Part shown: positions 27,279 to 62,616 of the stretch, piece after piece | How the letters are laid out: each line of letters begins with the position of its first letter | How positions within the stretch are numbered: position 1 is the stretch's first letter | Sequence record: OP172789 | Reading direction: 5' to 3' (one strand) | Length of the DNA stretch: 64,000 nucleotides | DNA from: Escherichia phage ECO71P1 | The notes under the pieces: model-generated | The model's database searches: none | Told to the model about the DNA's origin: nothing | What the model saw: only the letters and a program-made list of their open reading frames with translations | Program-made: the position numbers and the translations under genes

Positions 27279-27797
27279 ATGATAGAAAGAATTGTACCGT
27301 TACTGAAGATTCTTGCCCTTGTTGGCGCGTTCGCCGCTGGGTCATACGTTGAAGACCTTAAGCAAACCAACGCATCACTGGCCAAGGATAATCAATATCT
27401 TACATCGCTTAATGAGCGTAAGGACAAGATAAATGTACTCGAAGAGCAAATTGCATCTTTACAGGTTGAATCGGCATCGGCATATGAGAAGGGTCGCCAG
27501 GAAGCGCAACTGGTTGCTGATGACACTATTGCTCGTTACAAGTCTGGGAATATCAAGCTGCGCGAGCAACTCAGCTGCTCCCGTGAATTACTCAGGAGTG
27601 TGCCCGACTCTGCGACCACTGGACGCCTCTCTATCCCAGAAGGAAACTGTGGACTATCAGAAGAGGATGTCAGATTTCTTGTTCAGTTCGCCGCAGAAAC
27701 AAACCGATTAAAAGAGAAGGTTAATAGCTTGATTGATACTTATAATCAGGCTAAAATTAAAATCGACCAATTCAACGCATCAAAGGAAAATAAATGA
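27279..27797 (+). CDS. i-spanin (Rz-like): N-terminal TM helix plus coiled-coil periplasmic domain
   Basis: TM segment IVPLLKILALVGAFAAGSYV, coiled-coil remainder, embedded out-of-frame lipoprotein ORF. Confidence 0.65.
   Translation: MIERIVPLLKILALVGAFAAGSYVEDLKQTNASLAKDNQYLTSLNERKDKINVLEEQIASLQVESASAYEKGRQEAQLVADDTIARYKSGNIKLREQLSCSRELLRSVPDSATTGRLSIPEGNCGLSEEDVRFLVQFAAETNRLKEKVNSLIDTYNQAKIKIDQFNASKENK
27484..27711 (+). CDS. o-spanin (Rz1-like) lipoprotein embedded in the +1 frame of the i-spanin gene
   Basis: MRRVARKRNWLLMTLLLVTSLGISSC: basic n-region, hydrophobic core, lipobox-like ISSC; short mature peptide; entirely within 27279-27797. Confidence 0.6.
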   Translation: MRRVARKRNWLLMTLLLVTSLGISSCASNSAAPVNYSGVCPTLRPLDASLSQKETVDYQKRMSDFLFSSPQKQTD

Positions 27798-29536: not shown

Positions 29537-30079
29537 ATGAAAGCGAACAAATTAAAGATTGTTTTGATCATCATCATGGCTATGCTGACAGTTATATTCT
29601 TCACCAAGACTGCATCGGCTGAAAATATGTTTGCGCCGCCGAATGGAAGTGCAAAAGTTTTGACAAGATATTTCAACAATGGGCAATCCTTTGAGTTCTG
29701 CTGGAGCAAATACGACGTAATAAAAGAAAGATTTGACAAAGAAAAGATGTGCGTAATGAATGATCGCGGTCGACAAGTCGTGTCGTTTGTGTTCGGAATG
29801 TCAATGGCAAAAGTTGATGCCCCTGAAATCGTTGTCAGGTATAATACATTGGACAGCGGCCTTGTCGACAAGACATACCCTGTTGCAGTAGACAGCAGGA
29901 CAGGCGGCGCACTAATACTCACTCCAGAAGATAAATCAGATGTCGTTAACATGCTCATCAACAGCAAAGACGTAATCGTGTTTTATCACATTGAAGGCGT
30001 ATCAGACTACCAAATGGCCTACTATCCACTGCCCTTGAGAGATGCTTCAGGTAATGTTAAGACACAGGAAGTGCGTTGA
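29537..30079 (+). CDS. hypothetical exported protein (signal peptide, ASA-E cleavage-like site)
   Basis: MKANKLKIVLIIIMAMLTVIFFTKTASAEN N-terminus. Confidence 0.5.
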   Translation: MKANKLKIVLIIIMAMLTVIFFTKTASAENMFAPPNGSAKVLTRYFNNGQSFEFCWSKYDVIKERFDKEKMCVMNDRGRQVVSFVFGMSMAKVDAPEIVVRYNTLDSGLVDKTYPVAVDSRTGGALILTPEDKSDVVNMLINSKDVIVFYHIEGVSDYQMAYYPLPLRDASGNVKTQEVR

Positions 30080-30306
30080 CATGGGTGGTAGTTATGCAGA
30101 AAGATTTGGAAGAAAACAAAAGGCTGAAAAAGGCTTTGACGTCTCAAATCTTATCCCTGTTGGTAAAGCTTATTGGGGAGTCAATTAGCAGCAAGGTGGC
30201 ACGGGCCGCGATTGTAGGCGTGATTGGCATGGCGGGGTATTACTTCGACTTGCCAGACATTGATACAAGTTCCGCTCCGCCCGTCCAAGTTGAAGCCGTA
30301 AAATAA
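30076..30306 (+). CDS. small membrane protein (one TM helix); holin candidate not established
   Basis: AAIVGVIGMAGYYF hydrophobic segment; ATGA overlap with preceding gene. Confidence 0.4.
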   Translation: MTWVVVMQKDLEENKRLKKALTSQILSLLVKLIGESISSKVARAAIVGVIGMAGYYFDLPDIDTSSAPPVQVEAVK

Positions 30307-30331: not shown

Positions 30332-30976
30332 TTACATAACTGCTAATGCATCCTTGTAACGCTTTCTTCGCAACTCACCGTGGTTTGCTGCGTTCGGCGC
30401 GGCCCCGTTAATCCGCTTAACGGTTGAATCAAAATTACCTGCGTCAGCAAGAGGAATACATCCGCTATTCTTGAAGAACCATGCCGCGCTGTCTGCAATA
30501 TATTTTGGTTCAGTCAGAATATCAGGGTTGTTCAATGCGTCATAGCCTGATTGGCGTGTATATTCCGCATAGTTTGCCTTGCCAGTCAGCTGAATGGCAC
30601 CACGGCCACGGTACTTCCAACCGTCGCCAGATGCTACCGAACCGTTGCCCATGCGGTTTGCATATGTATTATTGGCGATTTCCATAGGTTTACGTGCAAT
30701 CGACAGGGCCAATGAGTTCGGGGCGCTTCCAGAACGACCGTTGACGCTGTAACGACTAGGCCATGTATTGGCAAGACCTTGAGCAGAGTAGTTGAGATTT
30801 TCCACAAATGTTTTCAAGCTGCCTGTCTCCACTCCTACGTTTGCAAGGAATGCCGCGATGGCATTCTTGCTTTTGATTCCGTAGTGCTCACACGCCTGCT
30901 TGAAAGGGTCCACCCATTTCTCTGCGACATCCATGCTGCATCCGGTCCCTTTAGATATTACGTTTGCGTTAATCAT
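30332..30976 (-). CDS. endolysin, glycoside hydrolase family 19 (chitinase-like lysozyme)
   Basis: AAFLANVGVETGSL and YRGRGAIQLTGKANY motifs typical of GH19. Confidence 0.8.
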   Translation of the reverse strand: MINANVISKGTGCSMDVAEKWVDPFKQACEHYGIKSKNAIAAFLANVGVETGSLKTFVENLNYSAQGLANTWPSRYSVNGRSGSAPNSLALSIARKPMEIANNTYANRMGNGSVASGDGWKYRGRGAIQLTGKANYAEYTRQSGYDALNNPDILTEPKYIADSAAWFFKNSGCIPLADAGNFDSTVKRINGAAPNAANHGELRRKRYKDALAVM

Positions 30977-30984
30977 AAATCACC

Positions 30985-32772
30985 TTATGCGCTTCTGTAC
31001 CAGCCATTCAAAACAACGTATCGCGGCAAAGTCGCAACAGCCGTTGGCACCGACTGCCCTGCGTTGCCAGTGTTACCGACCACATCGTGAGTGTGAGCGG
31101 GAAGGGTATAACTGTGGCTGTGATTGCCAGCGTAATTTATATTCAACCCATGGGTGTGTGATCCAGAAGATTGAATATTATGTACGTGATTGCCATTAGT
31201 TGAAGTGTTGTATTTGTAGTTATCCCAGTCGCCGCCTTTGCGACTTCCGAAGTTGTTGTGTGTCCCATCATAAACGCCGTACCGCGCATCACTAATATTG
31301 GATTCACCCCAGCTGCTGTCATGGTGGTGGTTGCCTGCCGTGCTCATTCCGTGCACGTGAGCGCCGTTTTGGCTGGTATCGCCTGTGTGGTTGTGGTTGC
31401 CTGCGTCTCCAGTGGTATTGGACCATGGACCGCTTTGTCGCGTGGTAATGTTCACGCTGTGATTGTGGAGAGGAAGCATAGCGGCGGTAAGAGTAACAGA
31501 GTCCGCGCCACCAGTGGCAAGACCGTTTCGTGCCGTGCCGGACGTGCGAATAACCATGTTATCAGGCAGCCGTGTCCAAACCTGACCGTAAGCACCCAGC
31601 TTGGTATTTGGGTTGGTCCCGTTTGTCAAGAATCGAGTCTCACCTACTTCGAATACATCACCCATAGTGATCAACTTCGCAGCCAAAGCATCGAGTTGGC
31701 GCTTTGTAACAAAATGTTGCGGCTCAGTAGCGTCAACGCCGATTTGCGCCGCGCCAAACGCCTGAAGGAGACGCCAAACAGTGCCGTCATAAATGATGGT
31801 GAATGGCAACAAGCCTACGATAGCGCCAGCTGGTAACTCGCCGCCGTCGAATCCAAGAACGGCAACTTTGTTTACACCAATGGTCACGGTGACAGGTCCG
31901 GTAGTAGTCAAGTCATTGACGATTGTCAAACGACTACCCGCAGAAGGTGGCCATGAATACCCTGCTGGAACGGTAAGGATTATATCTTGCGCTCCTTTAC
32001 CAGATGCAAGGTTTGGAGTTCCGATTTGCACGTCTTGAACAGTGGCATTTTGAATCCAAGCACTCCAAGCACCAGAAGTGTAAGAGCGAGTAAACAAATA
32101 GCCATTCATTGATGTATATTGCTGCAGCGCAAACGTTTGTGCATCGACCTGCCAAGCGCAAACCTGAAGGCGACCTGCAACCTTCGTCGCGCCAACCGCA
32201 TTCGGGATGTTAGAACACAGAGCGGCGACGGCATCGGACTGGATGACGATAGTTGTGGAAGTCGTAATATTATCGAAGTCCACAAAGCTTGAAATCAATC
32301 CGCGAACGAAGTACGGGTTTTGCGCATCGCCGCCAGCAGGCATTGGAATGTATTTTCGCGCTTCGCTGGGCAGTGTTAATTCCTGCCAAGATTCCGTTTC
32401 TCCGTTGGCTGGCACGGCACTTGTGTTGCCGTCGACCACGCTTTGAAAAATGCGCCACTCAGGCGCTGAAGGCGTTCCAGAGTTGCTGACAACAATGGCG
32501 TTTTTCGGGTATCCATCCGGCTTCAAGTCAGAAGAGAAATATTGTTGAGCGCCATGATCTTGAATAAACATAAGGTTGTCTGTAATCAAATTCAGCAACC
32601 AGTTCATTGATTCGCGCTCAACAGCTTTCGCGGCGACGTTTCCGGCCTCCAGAGCAAGCGCATAGTCAGGAGTGTAGCCGCGCTGGAAGTTCACATAACC
32701 GCTTGGGCTTGCATCCGGCACCACGGATACATCACCGCTTTGCGCGAAAGGTCTGTTAATAAGTGTTGGCAT
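30985..32772 (-). CDS. tail fibre protein with C-terminal His-x-His repeat (putative metal-binding) tip
   Basis: Eight HxH motifs (LHNHS, NHNHT, AHVHG, NHHHD, NHVHN, SHTHG, NHSHS, AHTHD) in the last ~150 aa; position downstream of baseplate genes. Confidence 0.75.
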   Translation of the reverse strand: MPTLINRPFAQSGDVSVVPDASPSGYVNFQRGYTPDYALALEAGNVAAKAVERESMNWLLNLITDNLMFIQDHGAQQYFSSDLKPDGYPKNAIVVSNSGTPSAPEWRIFQSVVDGNTSAVPANGETESWQELTLPSEARKYIPMPAGGDAQNPYFVRGLISSFVDFDNITTSTTIVIQSDAVAALCSNIPNAVGATKVAGRLQVCAWQVDAQTFALQQYTSMNGYLFTRSYTSGAWSAWIQNATVQDVQIGTPNLASGKGAQDIILTVPAGYSWPPSAGSRLTIVNDLTTTGPVTVTIGVNKVAVLGFDGGELPAGAIVGLLPFTIIYDGTVWRLLQAFGAAQIGVDATEPQHFVTKRQLDALAAKLITMGDVFEVGETRFLTNGTNPNTKLGAYGQVWTRLPDNMVIRTSGTARNGLATGGADSVTLTAAMLPLHNHSVNITTRQSGPWSNTTGDAGNHNHTGDTSQNGAHVHGMSTAGNHHHDSSWGESNISDARYGVYDGTHNNFGSRKGGDWDNYKYNTSTNGNHVHNIQSSGSHTHGLNINYAGNHSHSYTLPAHTHDVVGNTGNAGQSVPTAVATLPRYVVLNGWYRSA

Positions 32773-32782
32773 TGCCGTTCCT

Positions 32783-35521
32783 CTACACGATGTATTTAAT
32801 TTTTGATAAAAGGGTTGATGCCCAATCACCAGTTAAGTCAGTTATATTCATGCTTGAAACATAACCACCAGCAGCACTTCTTGGAAAGTTTACTGTCGCT
32901 ACAACATCCCCATTCGAAGCTATCAATTGAACTCCAGTAGCCAGTGACCCTGGGTTTTTGATGTATATAGAAGTTGCAGTTTTCTTTGCAAAATCTTCGC
33001 TTGTTGAAATAGCAAGCGCATTCATCGTATCACCAGACACAAGCATCAAGCTTAAAATGTCAAGTTCAAGAGTTGTGCCAACTTCGGTCGGCAAGTCTTT
33101 CCCTGATATCAAGCCAATACTGATTCCACCTGTCGACCCGTCCCAAGTCGCTCCTTCAACAATCTCAGCGGCAAGGTCAATTTCGATACGCTGCAAATCG
33201 CCTACGCCTATGTTGTAGAATTTAGGAATATAGCCGCCCATCCCATCCGGTACAGTCACAAAAAGTTTTTGACCGTTAACCGTGTTGTTTTTGACTATTG
33301 CGATAAACGACAAAGGGCCAGTCAGGGTGCCAGTGTATTTAGTGGCCAGTACGGCGCGTGCATAACCGGATGCTGGCACAGTCCCTATTGTAGCGGAAAG
33401 CTTGAATGATGGGAACTGGTTGGGAACACCGCTGATTGGCGTTGCCGTTACCGTGTTAGCTCCGTCCTTGACGATATTGCCAAAAGATGTGCCGTCATTG
33501 GGCTGTGTGTATCGCCAGTAGTTTGTGATTGCGGCACGTGGGATTTCACGACCAAAGTCATCTCTTGATGCTTTTGAGATTGAATAATCGTTGACAAGTG
33601 CGCCGTCGATGACTTGGTTTACACCTTTCAAAGATTCAAGCTGTCTTATGACACCGTTAAAGTTGTTCAACGGCCACTCGTTAATGCCGCCAACTCTGAT
33701 TATCCCGTCAGTGTTAATCCATGCAACACCTTCCGTTTCAAATCCGATTCTGGTGTCTGTGATGTCGCTTACTGTCAAGTCAATATCTGAAAGGTCTGCT
33801 TCTTCCTGGTAAAGTTGCCAACGTATCCCAGCGTTTGCTGGCAAGAATCCTTCACTCCTGTCGCCAACTAGCGTCTTAAAGTTATCAGACAAGTTGTTGG
33901 CAAAATAAGGCCCGATGACATATTCCATGTAATAGGCAGCGGTCGGCGGCGGCGGTACTCCGTCCAATCGGCTAACGTTCCATGAGCGTCTGATGCCGTC
34001 TGTTTCTGCGATCAGAGTGGCGTTGCCTGGGTACGGATAGCCGCCGATTGAACCAGAGTACGCAAGCGATGAGCCAGGCTGCATGAATGACTCGCCTACC
34101 ACGCCATCTCTTGTTGTCAACGGCCCGTTCGCGCAAGAGATGTTGTTGAGCGTTCCTGCCGTAACAGACAAGATTGCCGTTCCATCTGCAGGAGGATTTT
34201 GAGTCCCATAGAAATAAGGCTCAGGCCCATTAGGATTCTGAACAGGGTCGCAAACGCAAATGGAGTATCCAAAAAGAAGTGCATCAGACCCTTCAGGCAA
34301 TTCGCGAGTCTGGGTTGATCCAGCGGCAGTTGCTTTCAACTCAATTGAAAAGCTTGTTTTCACCCCAGCTGTCGCGTTTGCAGTTTGCTCTACAATCCAG
34401 ATTCTGTACCAATCGCCGCCGATGGCCTTGATGCCACCACGGCTTGATTCCCTTCTCACACCGTCGAACTTTCCTGTGATGAAATAACTCAAAGAAGGGT
34501 CAAGGTTGAATTGACCAGTAACTGGGTCGAAAAGCTTGCCATTACTCGATGCATCACTGTTCTCTGTTACGGAAACAGAAGCCACGTTTTCAGAAAGCAC
34601 TTTTATGTAGAAGCTATAGCAAACGTTGACACCAGCCTGAGAAGGAAGCGCAATAGATTGGGCGCTTGGATTATTGGCCAAAGAATACACAGGCTCGCCG
34701 CTGGAAGCGGTCTTGATGACCCGTACTGCGTTGGCGAAATTCTCTATGGCCTCTCCTGGGTAATCACCGCACAGTTGGCCGTAATAGTCAGGGCCGCCAT
34801 ATTGTCGTGTATCACCGCCGACAATGCCAGCGTCGGAACCATTGCCCCATGAATACCAGTCTGGGTGTGCCATTCGCGAAACGGTCCCTGCCACCCCACT
34901 TATGGTAAGTCCTGCGTTGTTGCCGTGACTCAAAAGAACTTGTTTATAATCGTGCTGAATCTCAGTTGACCCCTGCCAGTCGTACAGAAGGAATGAACCG
35001 TTTGTTGATTCAGAAGAAGACACTGCGCCTTGAGTATTGTCTGTCACGTATGCGTAGCGCGATGAAGAGTAATCCCAATCTTCTCCACGGTTAAAAATCC
35101 ACTTAAGCATACGGTTGATGCTTTCTATGCGGCCATCGCTTGTGAGCGTCAAATAACGAAGCTTAAGAAGGATTCGCGCTTCTTCAATGTTTTTCACAAC
35201 CTTTCCGCCAGCACCAAAGAAGTTGCCGCCGATGTTGTCCGGCCCTTCGAAGTTGTCGCGTGTGGGTCCAAATGCCCAGTTGTGCTCATAGTTGCTTAAG
35301 TCAACAAAATCCCTTGGTATGCATAGGATGTCACACCAAATATAGATGCCCATTGCATCGCAAGTATCAATGTTGAATATGTTTTTGTACCAGTCAATCC
35401 AAAACTGATCTTGATATCGCTCATACCAGTCACTTTTCTTTTGAACCAAAGATGTGATGTTTGGCGCGTTGTTCTGCATCCACTTAAGGTTTTGCAACAG
35501 GTTTGTGTCAAACTTTTGCAT
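32783..35521 (-). CDS. large baseplate/tail fibre-associated structural protein (912 aa)
   Basis: Position between baseplate J-like gene and tail fibre; Gly/Ser/Thr-rich beta-type sequence. Confidence 0.55.
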   Translation of the reverse strand: MQKFDTNLLQNLKWMQNNAPNITSLVQKKSDWYERYQDQFWIDWYKNIFNIDTCDAMGIYIWCDILCIPRDFVDLSNYEHNWAFGPTRDNFEGPDNIGGNFFGAGGKVVKNIEEARILLKLRYLTLTSDGRIESINRMLKWIFNRGEDWDYSSSRYAYVTDNTQGAVSSSESTNGSFLLYDWQGSTEIQHDYKQVLLSHGNNAGLTISGVAGTVSRMAHPDWYSWGNGSDAGIVGGDTRQYGGPDYYGQLCGDYPGEAIENFANAVRVIKTASSGEPVYSLANNPSAQSIALPSQAGVNVCYSFYIKVLSENVASVSVTENSDASSNGKLFDPVTGQFNLDPSLSYFITGKFDGVRRESSRGGIKAIGGDWYRIWIVEQTANATAGVKTSFSIELKATAAGSTQTRELPEGSDALLFGYSICVCDPVQNPNGPEPYFYGTQNPPADGTAILSVTAGTLNNISCANGPLTTRDGVVGESFMQPGSSLAYSGSIGGYPYPGNATLIAETDGIRRSWNVSRLDGVPPPPTAAYYMEYVIGPYFANNLSDNFKTLVGDRSEGFLPANAGIRWQLYQEEADLSDIDLTVSDITDTRIGFETEGVAWINTDGIIRVGGINEWPLNNFNGVIRQLESLKGVNQVIDGALVNDYSISKASRDDFGREIPRAAITNYWRYTQPNDGTSFGNIVKDGANTVTATPISGVPNQFPSFKLSATIGTVPASGYARAVLATKYTGTLTGPLSFIAIVKNNTVNGQKLFVTVPDGMGGYIPKFYNIGVGDLQRIEIDLAAEIVEGATWDGSTGGISIGLISGKDLPTEVGTTLELDILSLMLVSGDTMNALAISTSEDFAKKTATSIYIKNPGSLATGVQLIASNGDVVATVNFPRSAAGGYVSSMNITDLTGDWASTLLSKIKYIV

Positions 35522-60300: not shown

Positions 60301-62616
60301 ATGCCAAGGCTAATATTCAAAAACAACTTTGAGGTCGCGCTGGCTCAACCAACGACGACTTCAGACACCACAATCACAATTCGCTCAGGGTCGGGCTTTC
60401 CGACCTTGGGCGCAAACGAGCGTGTAGTGGCGACAATCGTCGATGCTGCAACAGGCCTCCAATTCGAAATCGTCACAGTAACAGCCGTTGTTGGAAACGT
60501 CCTGACCGTGCAGCGTGCACAAGAAGGAACTGCAGCGCGTGCGTGGTCGGCTGGTGACATGCTTTCCATTCGAACTACTGCTGCGACACTGACAAATTCT
60601 TTTCGAAACTTCGGGGAAATTCCTAGCGGAATAAATCTTAATGCTTTGACTGGCACTTGGTTTGGCATATATTATCAAACTCAAGATTCAAACGCATCAA
60701 CGACTCTAAATTACCCCATTGCAGTTGGTGGATCACTTGAGGTGTTTACAAGTGGTGCAGGGCAAGAAGGTTGCATCCAAGTTTATAAAGTAAGGAACTC
60801 GGCCAGGTCTTATACCAGGACTTACAATCCACAATCAGGATGGACTAGTTGGAATTCATACAGGATGACTGATGACACCGTGCCTATTCAATTTGGCGGA
60901 ACGGGGCAAACCACAATTCAGGGAATGAAAACAGCTTTTGGATTCGGAACGGTTGCTGATCAGAACATCGTTCCAACTTCAATGGGCGGCACCGGATCAG
61001 GGGATAATGCTCAGGCTTGGCTAAACATCCGTCCACAAGGATCAACACCGCTGGCTGGTGACCCAGTAAACGATTATGATGCCGCGACTAAGCGTTGGGT
61101 TGAGAACTTGGTGAATACAGGCACCGTTGGTCCAAGTATGAACGGTGTTATGAACTATGGCGTCGGTGATTTCCACTTACGGGACAGCCGTGCTTATATT
61201 CAACCTTATGAAGTCGTTTCTGACGGACAATTGTTAAATCGTGCAGACTGGCCTGAGCTTTGGGCTTATGCGCAAATGCTTACCCCTATTGCTGATGCTG
61301 ACTGGCTTGCCGATGCATCCAAGCGCGGCAAATATTCTTTGGGCAACGGAACGACAACATTCCGCGTGCCAGACCGTAACGGCGTCCAAGCAGGGTCCAT
61401 TCCTGGCCTATTTGGTCGAGGTGATGGTGGAGTGTCTTCTTTTGACGGTCGCGTAAGACAAAACGCAGCGCCAAACATAACCGGTTCAGTTGGCACTTCA
61501 ATATCAACGCAATATAACACGGCAGGTAACACAGGGACAGGGGCAATAGTTCCAGCACCTGTTGTTATTCCAGGCCTAAGAGTTGGTCCAGAAGGAGGTA
61601 CAACAAGCCTTAACTATAGGAACGGATTGAACATTGATGCAAGCCTTTCCAATGCTGCTTATGGTCGAGATGGCTCCGCAGAGGTTCGACCTAATGCTTT
61701 TGAAGGCGTTTGGGTGATTCGTGCATCTGGTGGATTTGTCGCGGCGAATACGCAGTGGAGTGTAATTACTGGTGACTCATCCCGTCCATCAACAGGGGTG
61801 ACAACGGATGGCGGTGAAATAATTTCAAGATACAATATTGGAACGGCACAGGAAGCCCAAATGAGCTGGCGCGTTCGCGCTTTAATTGGAGGTACATATT
61901 ATGCTCGCCTTAATGTGTCAAACGCCACAAAAGGCACAACTACTGTATTTGATTTTGATGATACTGGTGCAATGGCTGCTCCTGGCCCAATTTCTGCTGG
62001 TGCTGCTGGTTCAAATTTCAAAAGCACAATAGAAGTAAATAATGTCTCTTATCCAGGACTTTTGTTCAAGCCTACGTACACCAATGGAAACGTGATACCT
62101 GATACTGTTGTTGGAGGGAATACATTCTTTGAGTGCTCATTCATCCAGGGGCAGATATCAGGTGTTCAATTGTATCGTAGGAGGAAAGACGGAAATGCCA
62201 CAGGACAAATAGCGATTTCCTTCCCGACTACTGCCGGAACGATTGCGCTTCAAGGTACATCAGGCATTGAATATAAAAAGGACGTTGTAGATGCAGATGC
62301 CAAGGAAGCGATGGATAGAATCAATTCACAGCGCCTTGTCAATTTCGTTTATAAGGATGATGAGCAAGAGCGTGTGAGATTTGGTATAATCGCTGAAGAA
62401 GCGGAATTGATTGCGCCACAATATATCAAGCACAATCAAGAAAACATTTCTGACATTCTTGATGAAGAAGGAAACAAGATAGGTGAAGAGACTCGTGACA
62501 GACCTTCAGTTGACACAAACCCAATCGTCATGGACTTGATGGGCTGTGTGCAGTATCTCAATAAGCAAATTGAAGATTTGAAGGCAGAGATAGCCGCGCT
62601 AAAGGCAGCAAAATAA
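60301..62616 (+). CDS. tail fibre/tailspike protein with collar-like domain and C-terminal intramolecular chaperone (S74-like) domain
   Basis: Collar-like block DWPELWAYAQ ... TTFRVPDRNG; C-terminal LVNFVYKDDEQERVRFGIIAEEAEL followed by coiled coil. Confidence 0.7.
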   Translation: MPRLIFKNNFEVALAQPTTTSDTTITIRSGSGFPTLGANERVVATIVDAATGLQFEIVTVTAVVGNVLTVQRAQEGTAARAWSAGDMLSIRTTAATLTNSFRNFGEIPSGINLNALTGTWFGIYYQTQDSNASTTLNYPIAVGGSLEVFTSGAGQEGCIQVYKVRNSARSYTRTYNPQSGWTSWNSYRMTDDTVPIQFGGTGQTTIQGMKTAFGFGTVADQNIVPTSMGGTGSGDNAQAWLNIRPQGSTPLAGDPVNDYDAATKRWVENLVNTGTVGPSMNGVMNYGVGDFHLRDSRAYIQPYEVVSDGQLLNRADWPELWAYAQMLTPIADADWLADASKRGKYSLGNGTTTFRVPDRNGVQAGSIPGLFGRGDGGVSSFDGRVRQNAAPNITGSVGTSISTQYNTAGNTGTGAIVPAPVVIPGLRVGPEGGTTSLNYRNGLNIDASLSNAAYGRDGSAEVRPNAFEGVWVIRASGGFVAANTQWSVITGDSSRPSTGVTTDGGEIISRYNIGTAQEAQMSWRVRALIGGTYYARLNVSNATKGTTTVFDFDDTGAMAAPGPISAGAAGSNFKSTIEVNNVSYPGLLFKPTYTNGNVIPDTVVGGNTFFECSFIQGQISGVQLYRRRKDGNATGQIAISFPTTAGTIALQGTSGIEYKKDVVDADAKEAMDRINSQRLVNFVYKDDEQERVRFGIIAEEAELIAPQYIKHNQENISDILDEEGNKIGEETRDRPSVDTNPIVMDLMGCVQYLNKQIEDLKAEIAALKAAK

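Follow-up and report, generated by a model that had tools for sequence, protein, structure and literature searches.

The distal end of this fibre is, with a probability that we put at roughly 85%, the C-terminal receptor-binding tip of a conserved Wifcevirus fibre and a member of the collar-needle-head family represented by gp37 of phage T4, with a metal-binding trimer geometry that would follow by analogy with the T4 structure. The gene lies on the minus strand at 30985..32772 of the window, by which we mean the whole 64-kb stretch of DNA that was analysed, and encodes 595 amino acids followed by a stop codon; its product matches phrog_5717 'tail protein' (E = 5e-177). Its start is ATG 32772, with an AGGA ribosome-binding site at 32779-32782 directly past the TAG stop codon of the upstream gene. 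The mechanical start of the open reading frame, GTG 32829, falls within that upstream gene and was rejected, and orthologues of the fibre are annotated at 594-595 residues, in agreement with the 595 encoded from ATG 32772.

To judge from its DNA, the source phage belongs to Wifcevirus, a genus of E. coli myoviruses whose family is given as Lindbergviridae in one record. The 6-kb fibre locus is 95.7% identical to that of Escherichia phage Mansfield and 89-95% identical to that of 27 other records, including ECML-117, FEC19, WFC/WFH and Bas98-101, so that 28 records in the phage collection have at least 89% DNA identity across it. Orthology identifies the gene as the conserved 'second' tail fibre of the genus, corresponding to Mansfield_051 and to Bas99_0031; the latter is the only HxH fibre in the Bas99 locus, and this GenBank tag denotes the protein called Gp32 in the paper describing it. 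The orthologues (Bas99 Gp32, Mansfield_051, ECML-117, FEC19 and WFC among others) are the same gene in the same place, between a DUF2612 wedge gene and a GH19 endolysin gene, they carry the same eight HxH motifs, and their differences from the query are allelic only. Most database records label the gene 'hypothetical protein' or 'tail protein'.

The protein is divided into a proximal attachment module and a distal hairpin, all coordinates being on the minus strand. Residues 1-372 (31657..32772) form an N-terminal module for baseplate attachment together with a shaft, identified with phmmer against the PDB by a match to 'gp47 Tail fiber' (9b45_2) that covers query 20-391 in the numbering of the open reading frame and has an E-value of 1.3e-31. 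There follow the N-terminal part of the collar domain (residues 376-435, 31468..31647, 'VGETRFLTNGTNPNT...GGADSVTLTAAMLP'); the descending arm of the needle, bearing HxH motifs 1-4 (His436/438, 460/462, 472/474 and 482/484; 31321..31467); an insert that forms the head, or distal tip, of the type 'WGE...ARYG.YD...DWDNYKY.TST' (residues 485-528, 31189..31320), which is a variable, dimorphic and recombining cassette; an ascending arm with motifs 5-8 (His529/531, 539/541, 551/553 and 560/562; 31087..31188); and finally a return to the collar (30988..31086), where the protein ends '...LPRYVVLNGWYRSA', a conserved 'W.R(T/S)A' terminus. No chaperone domain follows this return to the collar, and the match extends to the last residue, typically '...W.RTA', in every one of the 70 relatives listed (of the 99 covered over their full length).

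The motifs, which begin at residues 436, 460, 472, 482, 529, 539, 551 and 560 of the 595, read in order HNH, HNH, HVH, HHH, HVH, HTH, HSH and HTH, and are encoded at 31459-31467, 31387-31395, 31351-31359, 31321-31329, 31180-31188, 31150-31158, 31114-31122 and 31087-31095. A sequence-only reading had placed eight of them in the last 150 or so residues, within 30985-31500; all eight do lie inside that interval, but they span the last 160 residues. The same reading had called their spacing semi-regular, and it proves to be more ordered than this, since the intervals of 24, 12 and 10 residues on the descending side are mirrored, about a central interval of 47, by 10, 12 and 9 on the ascending side. 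A chain that descends a needle, forms a head and climbs back again would give rise to such a pattern. Comparable mirroring is seen in the related protein P0036 (24, 12, 12, 12, 10, then 49, then 10, 12, 12, 12, 9) and in T4 gp37 (32, 14, then 37, then 14, 9, 9).

We consider it highly improbable that the motifs are a by-product of low-complexity sequence, that is, of a repeat rich in G, N, S, T and H that binds no metal. The last 174 residues are indeed biased in composition, these five amino acids accounting for 98 of them, 18 of the 21 histidines in the fibre are found there, and HMMER bias scores are high for the tip alignment. However, shuffling this histidine-rich segment alone yields a mean of 1.75 HxH motifs and shuffling the whole protein a mean of 0.69, and in neither case did any of 20,000 shuffles reach eight; a compositional artefact was rejected. 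In the fibre itself 16 of the 18 histidines belong to HxH motifs, and no other open reading frame in the 64-kb window has as many as three such motifs. Conservation speaks against the low-complexity explanation as well. Across 16 distinct Wifcevirus proteins, comprising the query and 15 orthologues that were extracted and aligned, all 16 motif histidines are unchanged throughout, and the residue between them differs among the proteins at three of the eight motifs (N/S, V/S and H/Y); the invariant positions are therefore the histidines and not their neighbours. The homologous motifs, moreover, hold iron in the 2XGF crystal according to the literature.

The histidines have been retained for longer than shared recent descent would require. 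Along the fibre gene dS is 0.4-0.65 and dN/dS 0.02-0.06 (about 0.02 in the N-terminal module, residues 1-372), values that speak of strong purifying selection, and with synonymous divergence of this order the invariance of the histidines does not merely reflect recent common ancestry. In a wider set of 96 relatives with 28-56% identity to the query, conservation is 90% or more at motifs 1, 2, 7 and 8 and lower at the inner motifs, where the number of repeats varies.

It is homology to the T4 gp37 tip that gives these motifs their meaning. A tip-family profile of 35 sequences including the query matched PDB 2XGF at E = 1.3e-26, aligning profile positions 66-281 with positions 18-241 of the chain, from the collar to the C-terminus, and a second profile built from 96 sequences matched it at E = 5e-18; the profiles also match the C-terminal domain of T4 gp10, the Pa223 fibre and the fibre of cyanophage A-1(L). 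Pairwise BLASTP similarity between the tip and T4 gp37 is weak (E = 1e-5, about 30% identity over 106 residues of biased composition), and a Pfam search with the query itself returned no family even at E <= 10. When alignment is guided by the family HMM, seven of the eight motifs pair with the seven HxH motifs of T4 at His883, 915, 929, 966, 980, 989 and 998. The four ascending motifs correspond one to one with His966, 980, 989 and 998, three of the four descending motifs with His883, 915 and 929, and the additional motif sits at the 'FDYGTKG' unit of T4. Together with the invariant histidines, these results support the earlier proposal of a T4-type fibre tip that would coordinate metal.

The tip family is large. 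When the last 228 residues of the fibre were used as the query, 328 cluster representatives among 1.8 billion were recovered at E <= 1e-3; these relatives carry 3 to 15 HxH motifs each, and for many of them the Pfam assignment is Gp10_C (PF21939) or Collar (PF07484). The word-indexed homologue search gave distant relatives only, at 25-39% identity and with the Wifcevirus orthologues absent; the phage collection and IMG/VR supplied those orthologues. Predicted monomer structures were of low confidence in the region of interest. An AlphaFold2 monomer from a 35-row alignment had a pLDDT of 55.7 overall and below 50 in the needle, another monomer model reached 71.5 overall, and across both models the needle and head were weak, with the head below 50. 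Foldseek comparison of the first model with the PDB found nothing (best E = 5.5), and that of the second gave no significant match.

The sequence-only reading had named the tips of both T4 gp37 and T4 gp12 as comparisons, and the outcome is one-sided: 2XGF was matched at about 1e-26, and gp12 was absent from both profile searches. The proposition that the tip is instead a receptor-binding domain of the T4 gp12 short-tail-fibre type, with a single Zn site, is in our view scarcely credible. In addition to its absence from the profile searches, at E <= 1 and at E <= 0.01, the Pfam score for S_tail_recep_bd (PF14928) is 9 bits, far under the cut-off of 23.8 bits, and the published analysis of Bas99 (PMC11990801) places a gp12-like domain on the other, T-shaped fibre. 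Eight motifs arranged in two mirrored arms fit the gp37 hairpin and not the gp12 domain, which was rejected accordingly.

Since the T4 gp37 structure of 2010, needles lined with HxH motifs and loaded with metal ions have belonged to the textbook knowledge of phage structure. As set out in papers describing that structure, each of the seven HxH motifs of gp37 holds an iron ion along the needle axis. Octahedral Fe(II) sites are built from the same motif in R-pyocin fibres and in the P2 gpV spike. By analogy with T4, we propose that three chains of the present fibre would intertwine, each descending from the collar through four HxH motifs, forming a small distal head, reascending through four more and ending in the collar. 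The three chains would present six imidazoles towards the threefold axis at every HxH level and so coordinate a single metal ion with octahedral geometry, giving up to eight ions per fibre. Fe(II), the metal of T4 gp37 and of R-pyocin fibres, is the most likely candidate; the HxH site of T4 gp12 holds Zn in its crystal structure, possibly as a refolding artefact, and for this reason the metal in the present tip could differ from iron. The ions may serve both as registration points for folding of the trimer and as rivets that stiffen a thin needle, while the head at its far end would contact the cell surface.

The present tip resembles that of T4 gp37 (2XGF) in the order of collar, needle and head, in having HxH motifs on both the descending and ascending arms, and in the protein ending within the collar. 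There are nevertheless several differences. The query has eight motifs in a 4+4 arrangement and T4 gp37 seven in a 3+4 arrangement, with 'FDYGTKG' in T4 where the query has its extra HxH; the head sequence, of the WGE...DWDNYKY type, is unlike that of T4 gp37; and the fibre is a single protein of 595 residues that goes straight onto a simple baseplate, whereas T4 gp37 is the last of four long-fibre proteins. Nor is there an adjacent gp38-like gene, in contrast to T4 gp37. The GH19 endolysin gene (30332..30976, minus strand; Pfam Glyco_hydro_19, phrog_181) starts 9 nt past the fibre stop codon, and therefore no tail-fibre assembly gene follows; among the neighbouring genes on either side, no tail-fibre chaperone gene was found.

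On the other side of the fibre lies a gene for a baseplate protein of the 'wedge 2 / triplex' kind (32783..35521, minus strand; 912 residues), which has the Pfam domain DUF2612 and matches gp46 of PDB 9b45_v and gp45 of 8env_K. Only its residues 4-185 match these two structures (E ~1e-42), and it is likely to be the docking partner of the fibre. Its Pbunavirus counterparts (9b45_v and 8env_K) are 500-504 residues long. For the remaining 700 or so residues neither Pfam nor the sequences of the PDB gave a match, and this part could constitute an extra surface-exposed or binding module beside the fibre attachment site.

Orthologous genes further upstream are annotated as baseplate J, gpV-like spike, Mu gp44-like hub, tape measure, gp25-like wedge, tube and sheath. 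The P2/Mu-like baseplate context ascribed to the fibre by the sequence-only reading thus holds in outline, through the hub, spike, baseplate J and gp25-like wedge annotations, but the baseplate is more precisely of the Pbunavirus type. Pbunavirus Pa193 shares with the query the order of wedge 2 followed by fibre, and the N-terminal 370 or so residues of its gp47 (PDB 9b45) are homologous at the E-value of 1.3e-31 noted above. However, Pa193 gp47 is 962 residues long and its C-terminal 590 residues have no similarity to the HxH tip, and hence the distal module differs between Pbunavirus and Wifcevirus and has been replaced. In Pantoea phage PA1 (Kylevirus, locus L016) and in the proteins P0035, P0036, P0044, P0046 and P0055, relatives encoded on contigs of about 46-72 kb, a Pbunavirus-like N-terminal fibre module is kept and the needles have 8 to 12 HxH motifs. 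Needle length evidently changes as repeat units are gained or lost on the two arms at once.

The other genes around the fibre locus may be described briefly. Just beyond the endolysin gene, and convergent with it, are two open reading frames (29537..30079 and 30076..30306, both on the plus strand) that are conserved and 'hypothetical' in all relatives; neither has a Pfam match, and the 180-residue product of the first, which has an N-terminal hydrophobic segment resembling a signal peptide (MKANKLKIVLIIIMAMLTVIFFTKTASA), also lacks a PHROG match. At 27279..27797 (plus strand) an open reading frame contains another in a different frame (27433..27711, plus strand), and this nested arrangement matches what is annotated in Mansfield and Bas99 as an i-spanin/o-spanin pair. 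MazG-like and DNA ligase genes come next. The other tail fibre of the phage, a 771-residue protein of phrog_6921 (60301..62616, plus strand), is encoded about 27.5 kb from the HxH fibre and outside the tail-gene block. Its N-terminus has the sequence 'RLIFKNNFE', which is also found near the N-terminus of Bas99 Gp114, a T-shaped fibre with dual receptor-binding domains.

A T4-type tip had seemed out of place beside a P2/Mu-like baseplate, but this supposed oddity disappears once other phages are considered, since the same tip occurs on Xenorhabdus P2-type fibres and is reported in the literature for Felixounavirus fibres and Gordonclarkvirinae short fibres. Two Xenorhabdus P2-type fibres (WP_237387107 and WP_426576635) have the same C-terminal arrangement of collar, HxH needle and head, the head being 60-70% identical over about 50 residues. 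They differ in needle length, with four HxH motifs against eight in the query, and in their N-terminal attachment modules, that of WP_237387107 being P2 gpH-like (PF12571). The Bas63 cryo-EM paper describes a tip of the same kind, with 6-7 HxH motifs, on both the long and the short fibre of Felixounavirus, and related tips are reported in the literature on Gordonclarkvirinae short fibres too. Most directly, Humolli et al. 2025 (PLoS Biol, PMC11990801) have already reported an HxH T4-like tip for Bas99 Gp32, the orthologue of the query, for which an AlphaFold3 trimer gave an ipTM of 0.64, a value of moderate confidence. Since that tip was reported in 2025 and such tips are widespread, the present finding is correct but already known.

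What our analysis adds is modest: sequence variation in the fibre is concentrated in a dimorphic head, which recombines separately from the remainder of the gene. In the set of 16 proteins compared, 537 of the 595 positions are invariant; of the 43 head positions (residues 486-528) 16 vary, compared with 42 of the 552 in the other parts of the protein (odds ratio 7.2, Fisher p = 3e-7). In the 16 Wifcevirus genomes (loci L001-L015 and the query) the head exists as two alleles, whose differences include a one-codon indel. Allele A is found in the query phage, Mansfield, FEC19, Bas98, Bas101 and others, and allele B in Bas99, ECML-117, WFC, CWP003 and others. Between the alleles dN in the head is 0.18 and synonymous divergence is saturated. 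Both are scattered over both clades of the tree of the N-terminal region, with which they are incongruent; ECML-117, for example, is 97% identical to the query over the first 1125 nt and yet carries allele B. This scatter indicates that the head cassette has recombined within the genus. A wider search found the head type 'H.HDSGWGE...ARYG.YD...D.DNYKY.TST' in about 25 representatives, including the Xenorhabdus fibres at 60-70% identity.

These observations bear on what the fibre does. Humolli et al. (PMC11990801) suggested a mechanical or triggering role for the fibre on the ground of its strong conservation within the genus; on such a reading, which accepts the same metal-binding structure, it would be mainly an anchor resembling a short tail fibre and the HxH needle a rigid strut only. 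The near-invariance of the protein and its low dN/dS (0.02-0.06) are in keeping with this, as is the fact that these authors credit dependence on the O16 O-antigen to the other, T-shaped fibre (here 60301..62616). Against it stand the seven-fold concentration of variation in the distal head (p = 3e-7), the independent reassortment of two head alleles with saturated synonymous divergence, and the occurrence of the same head type on unrelated P2-type fibres of Xenorhabdus. Heightened variation, two independently recombining alleles and a shared head type are the usual marks of a surface in contact with a receptor, and to our minds the variation of the head argues mildly against a purely mechanical role, which we regard as doubtful.

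A role in receptor binding is the reading that we favour, and in its most specific form it is put forward tentatively. The head would be a dimorphic receptor-binding cassette, freely recombining and of a type shared with Xenorhabdus P2-type fibres, borne on a needle with eight metal ions, one more than in T4 gp37; it might set a second receptor specificity that comes into play behind the O-antigen step and is directed, for example, at an outer-membrane protein or the LPS core. The practical value of the finding lies in the annotation of the fibre gene. For Wifcevirus phages, which are of some applied interest because of their reported very fast replication, the head cassette at residues 485-528 provides a defined place in which to look for, or to engineer, secondary receptor specificity.
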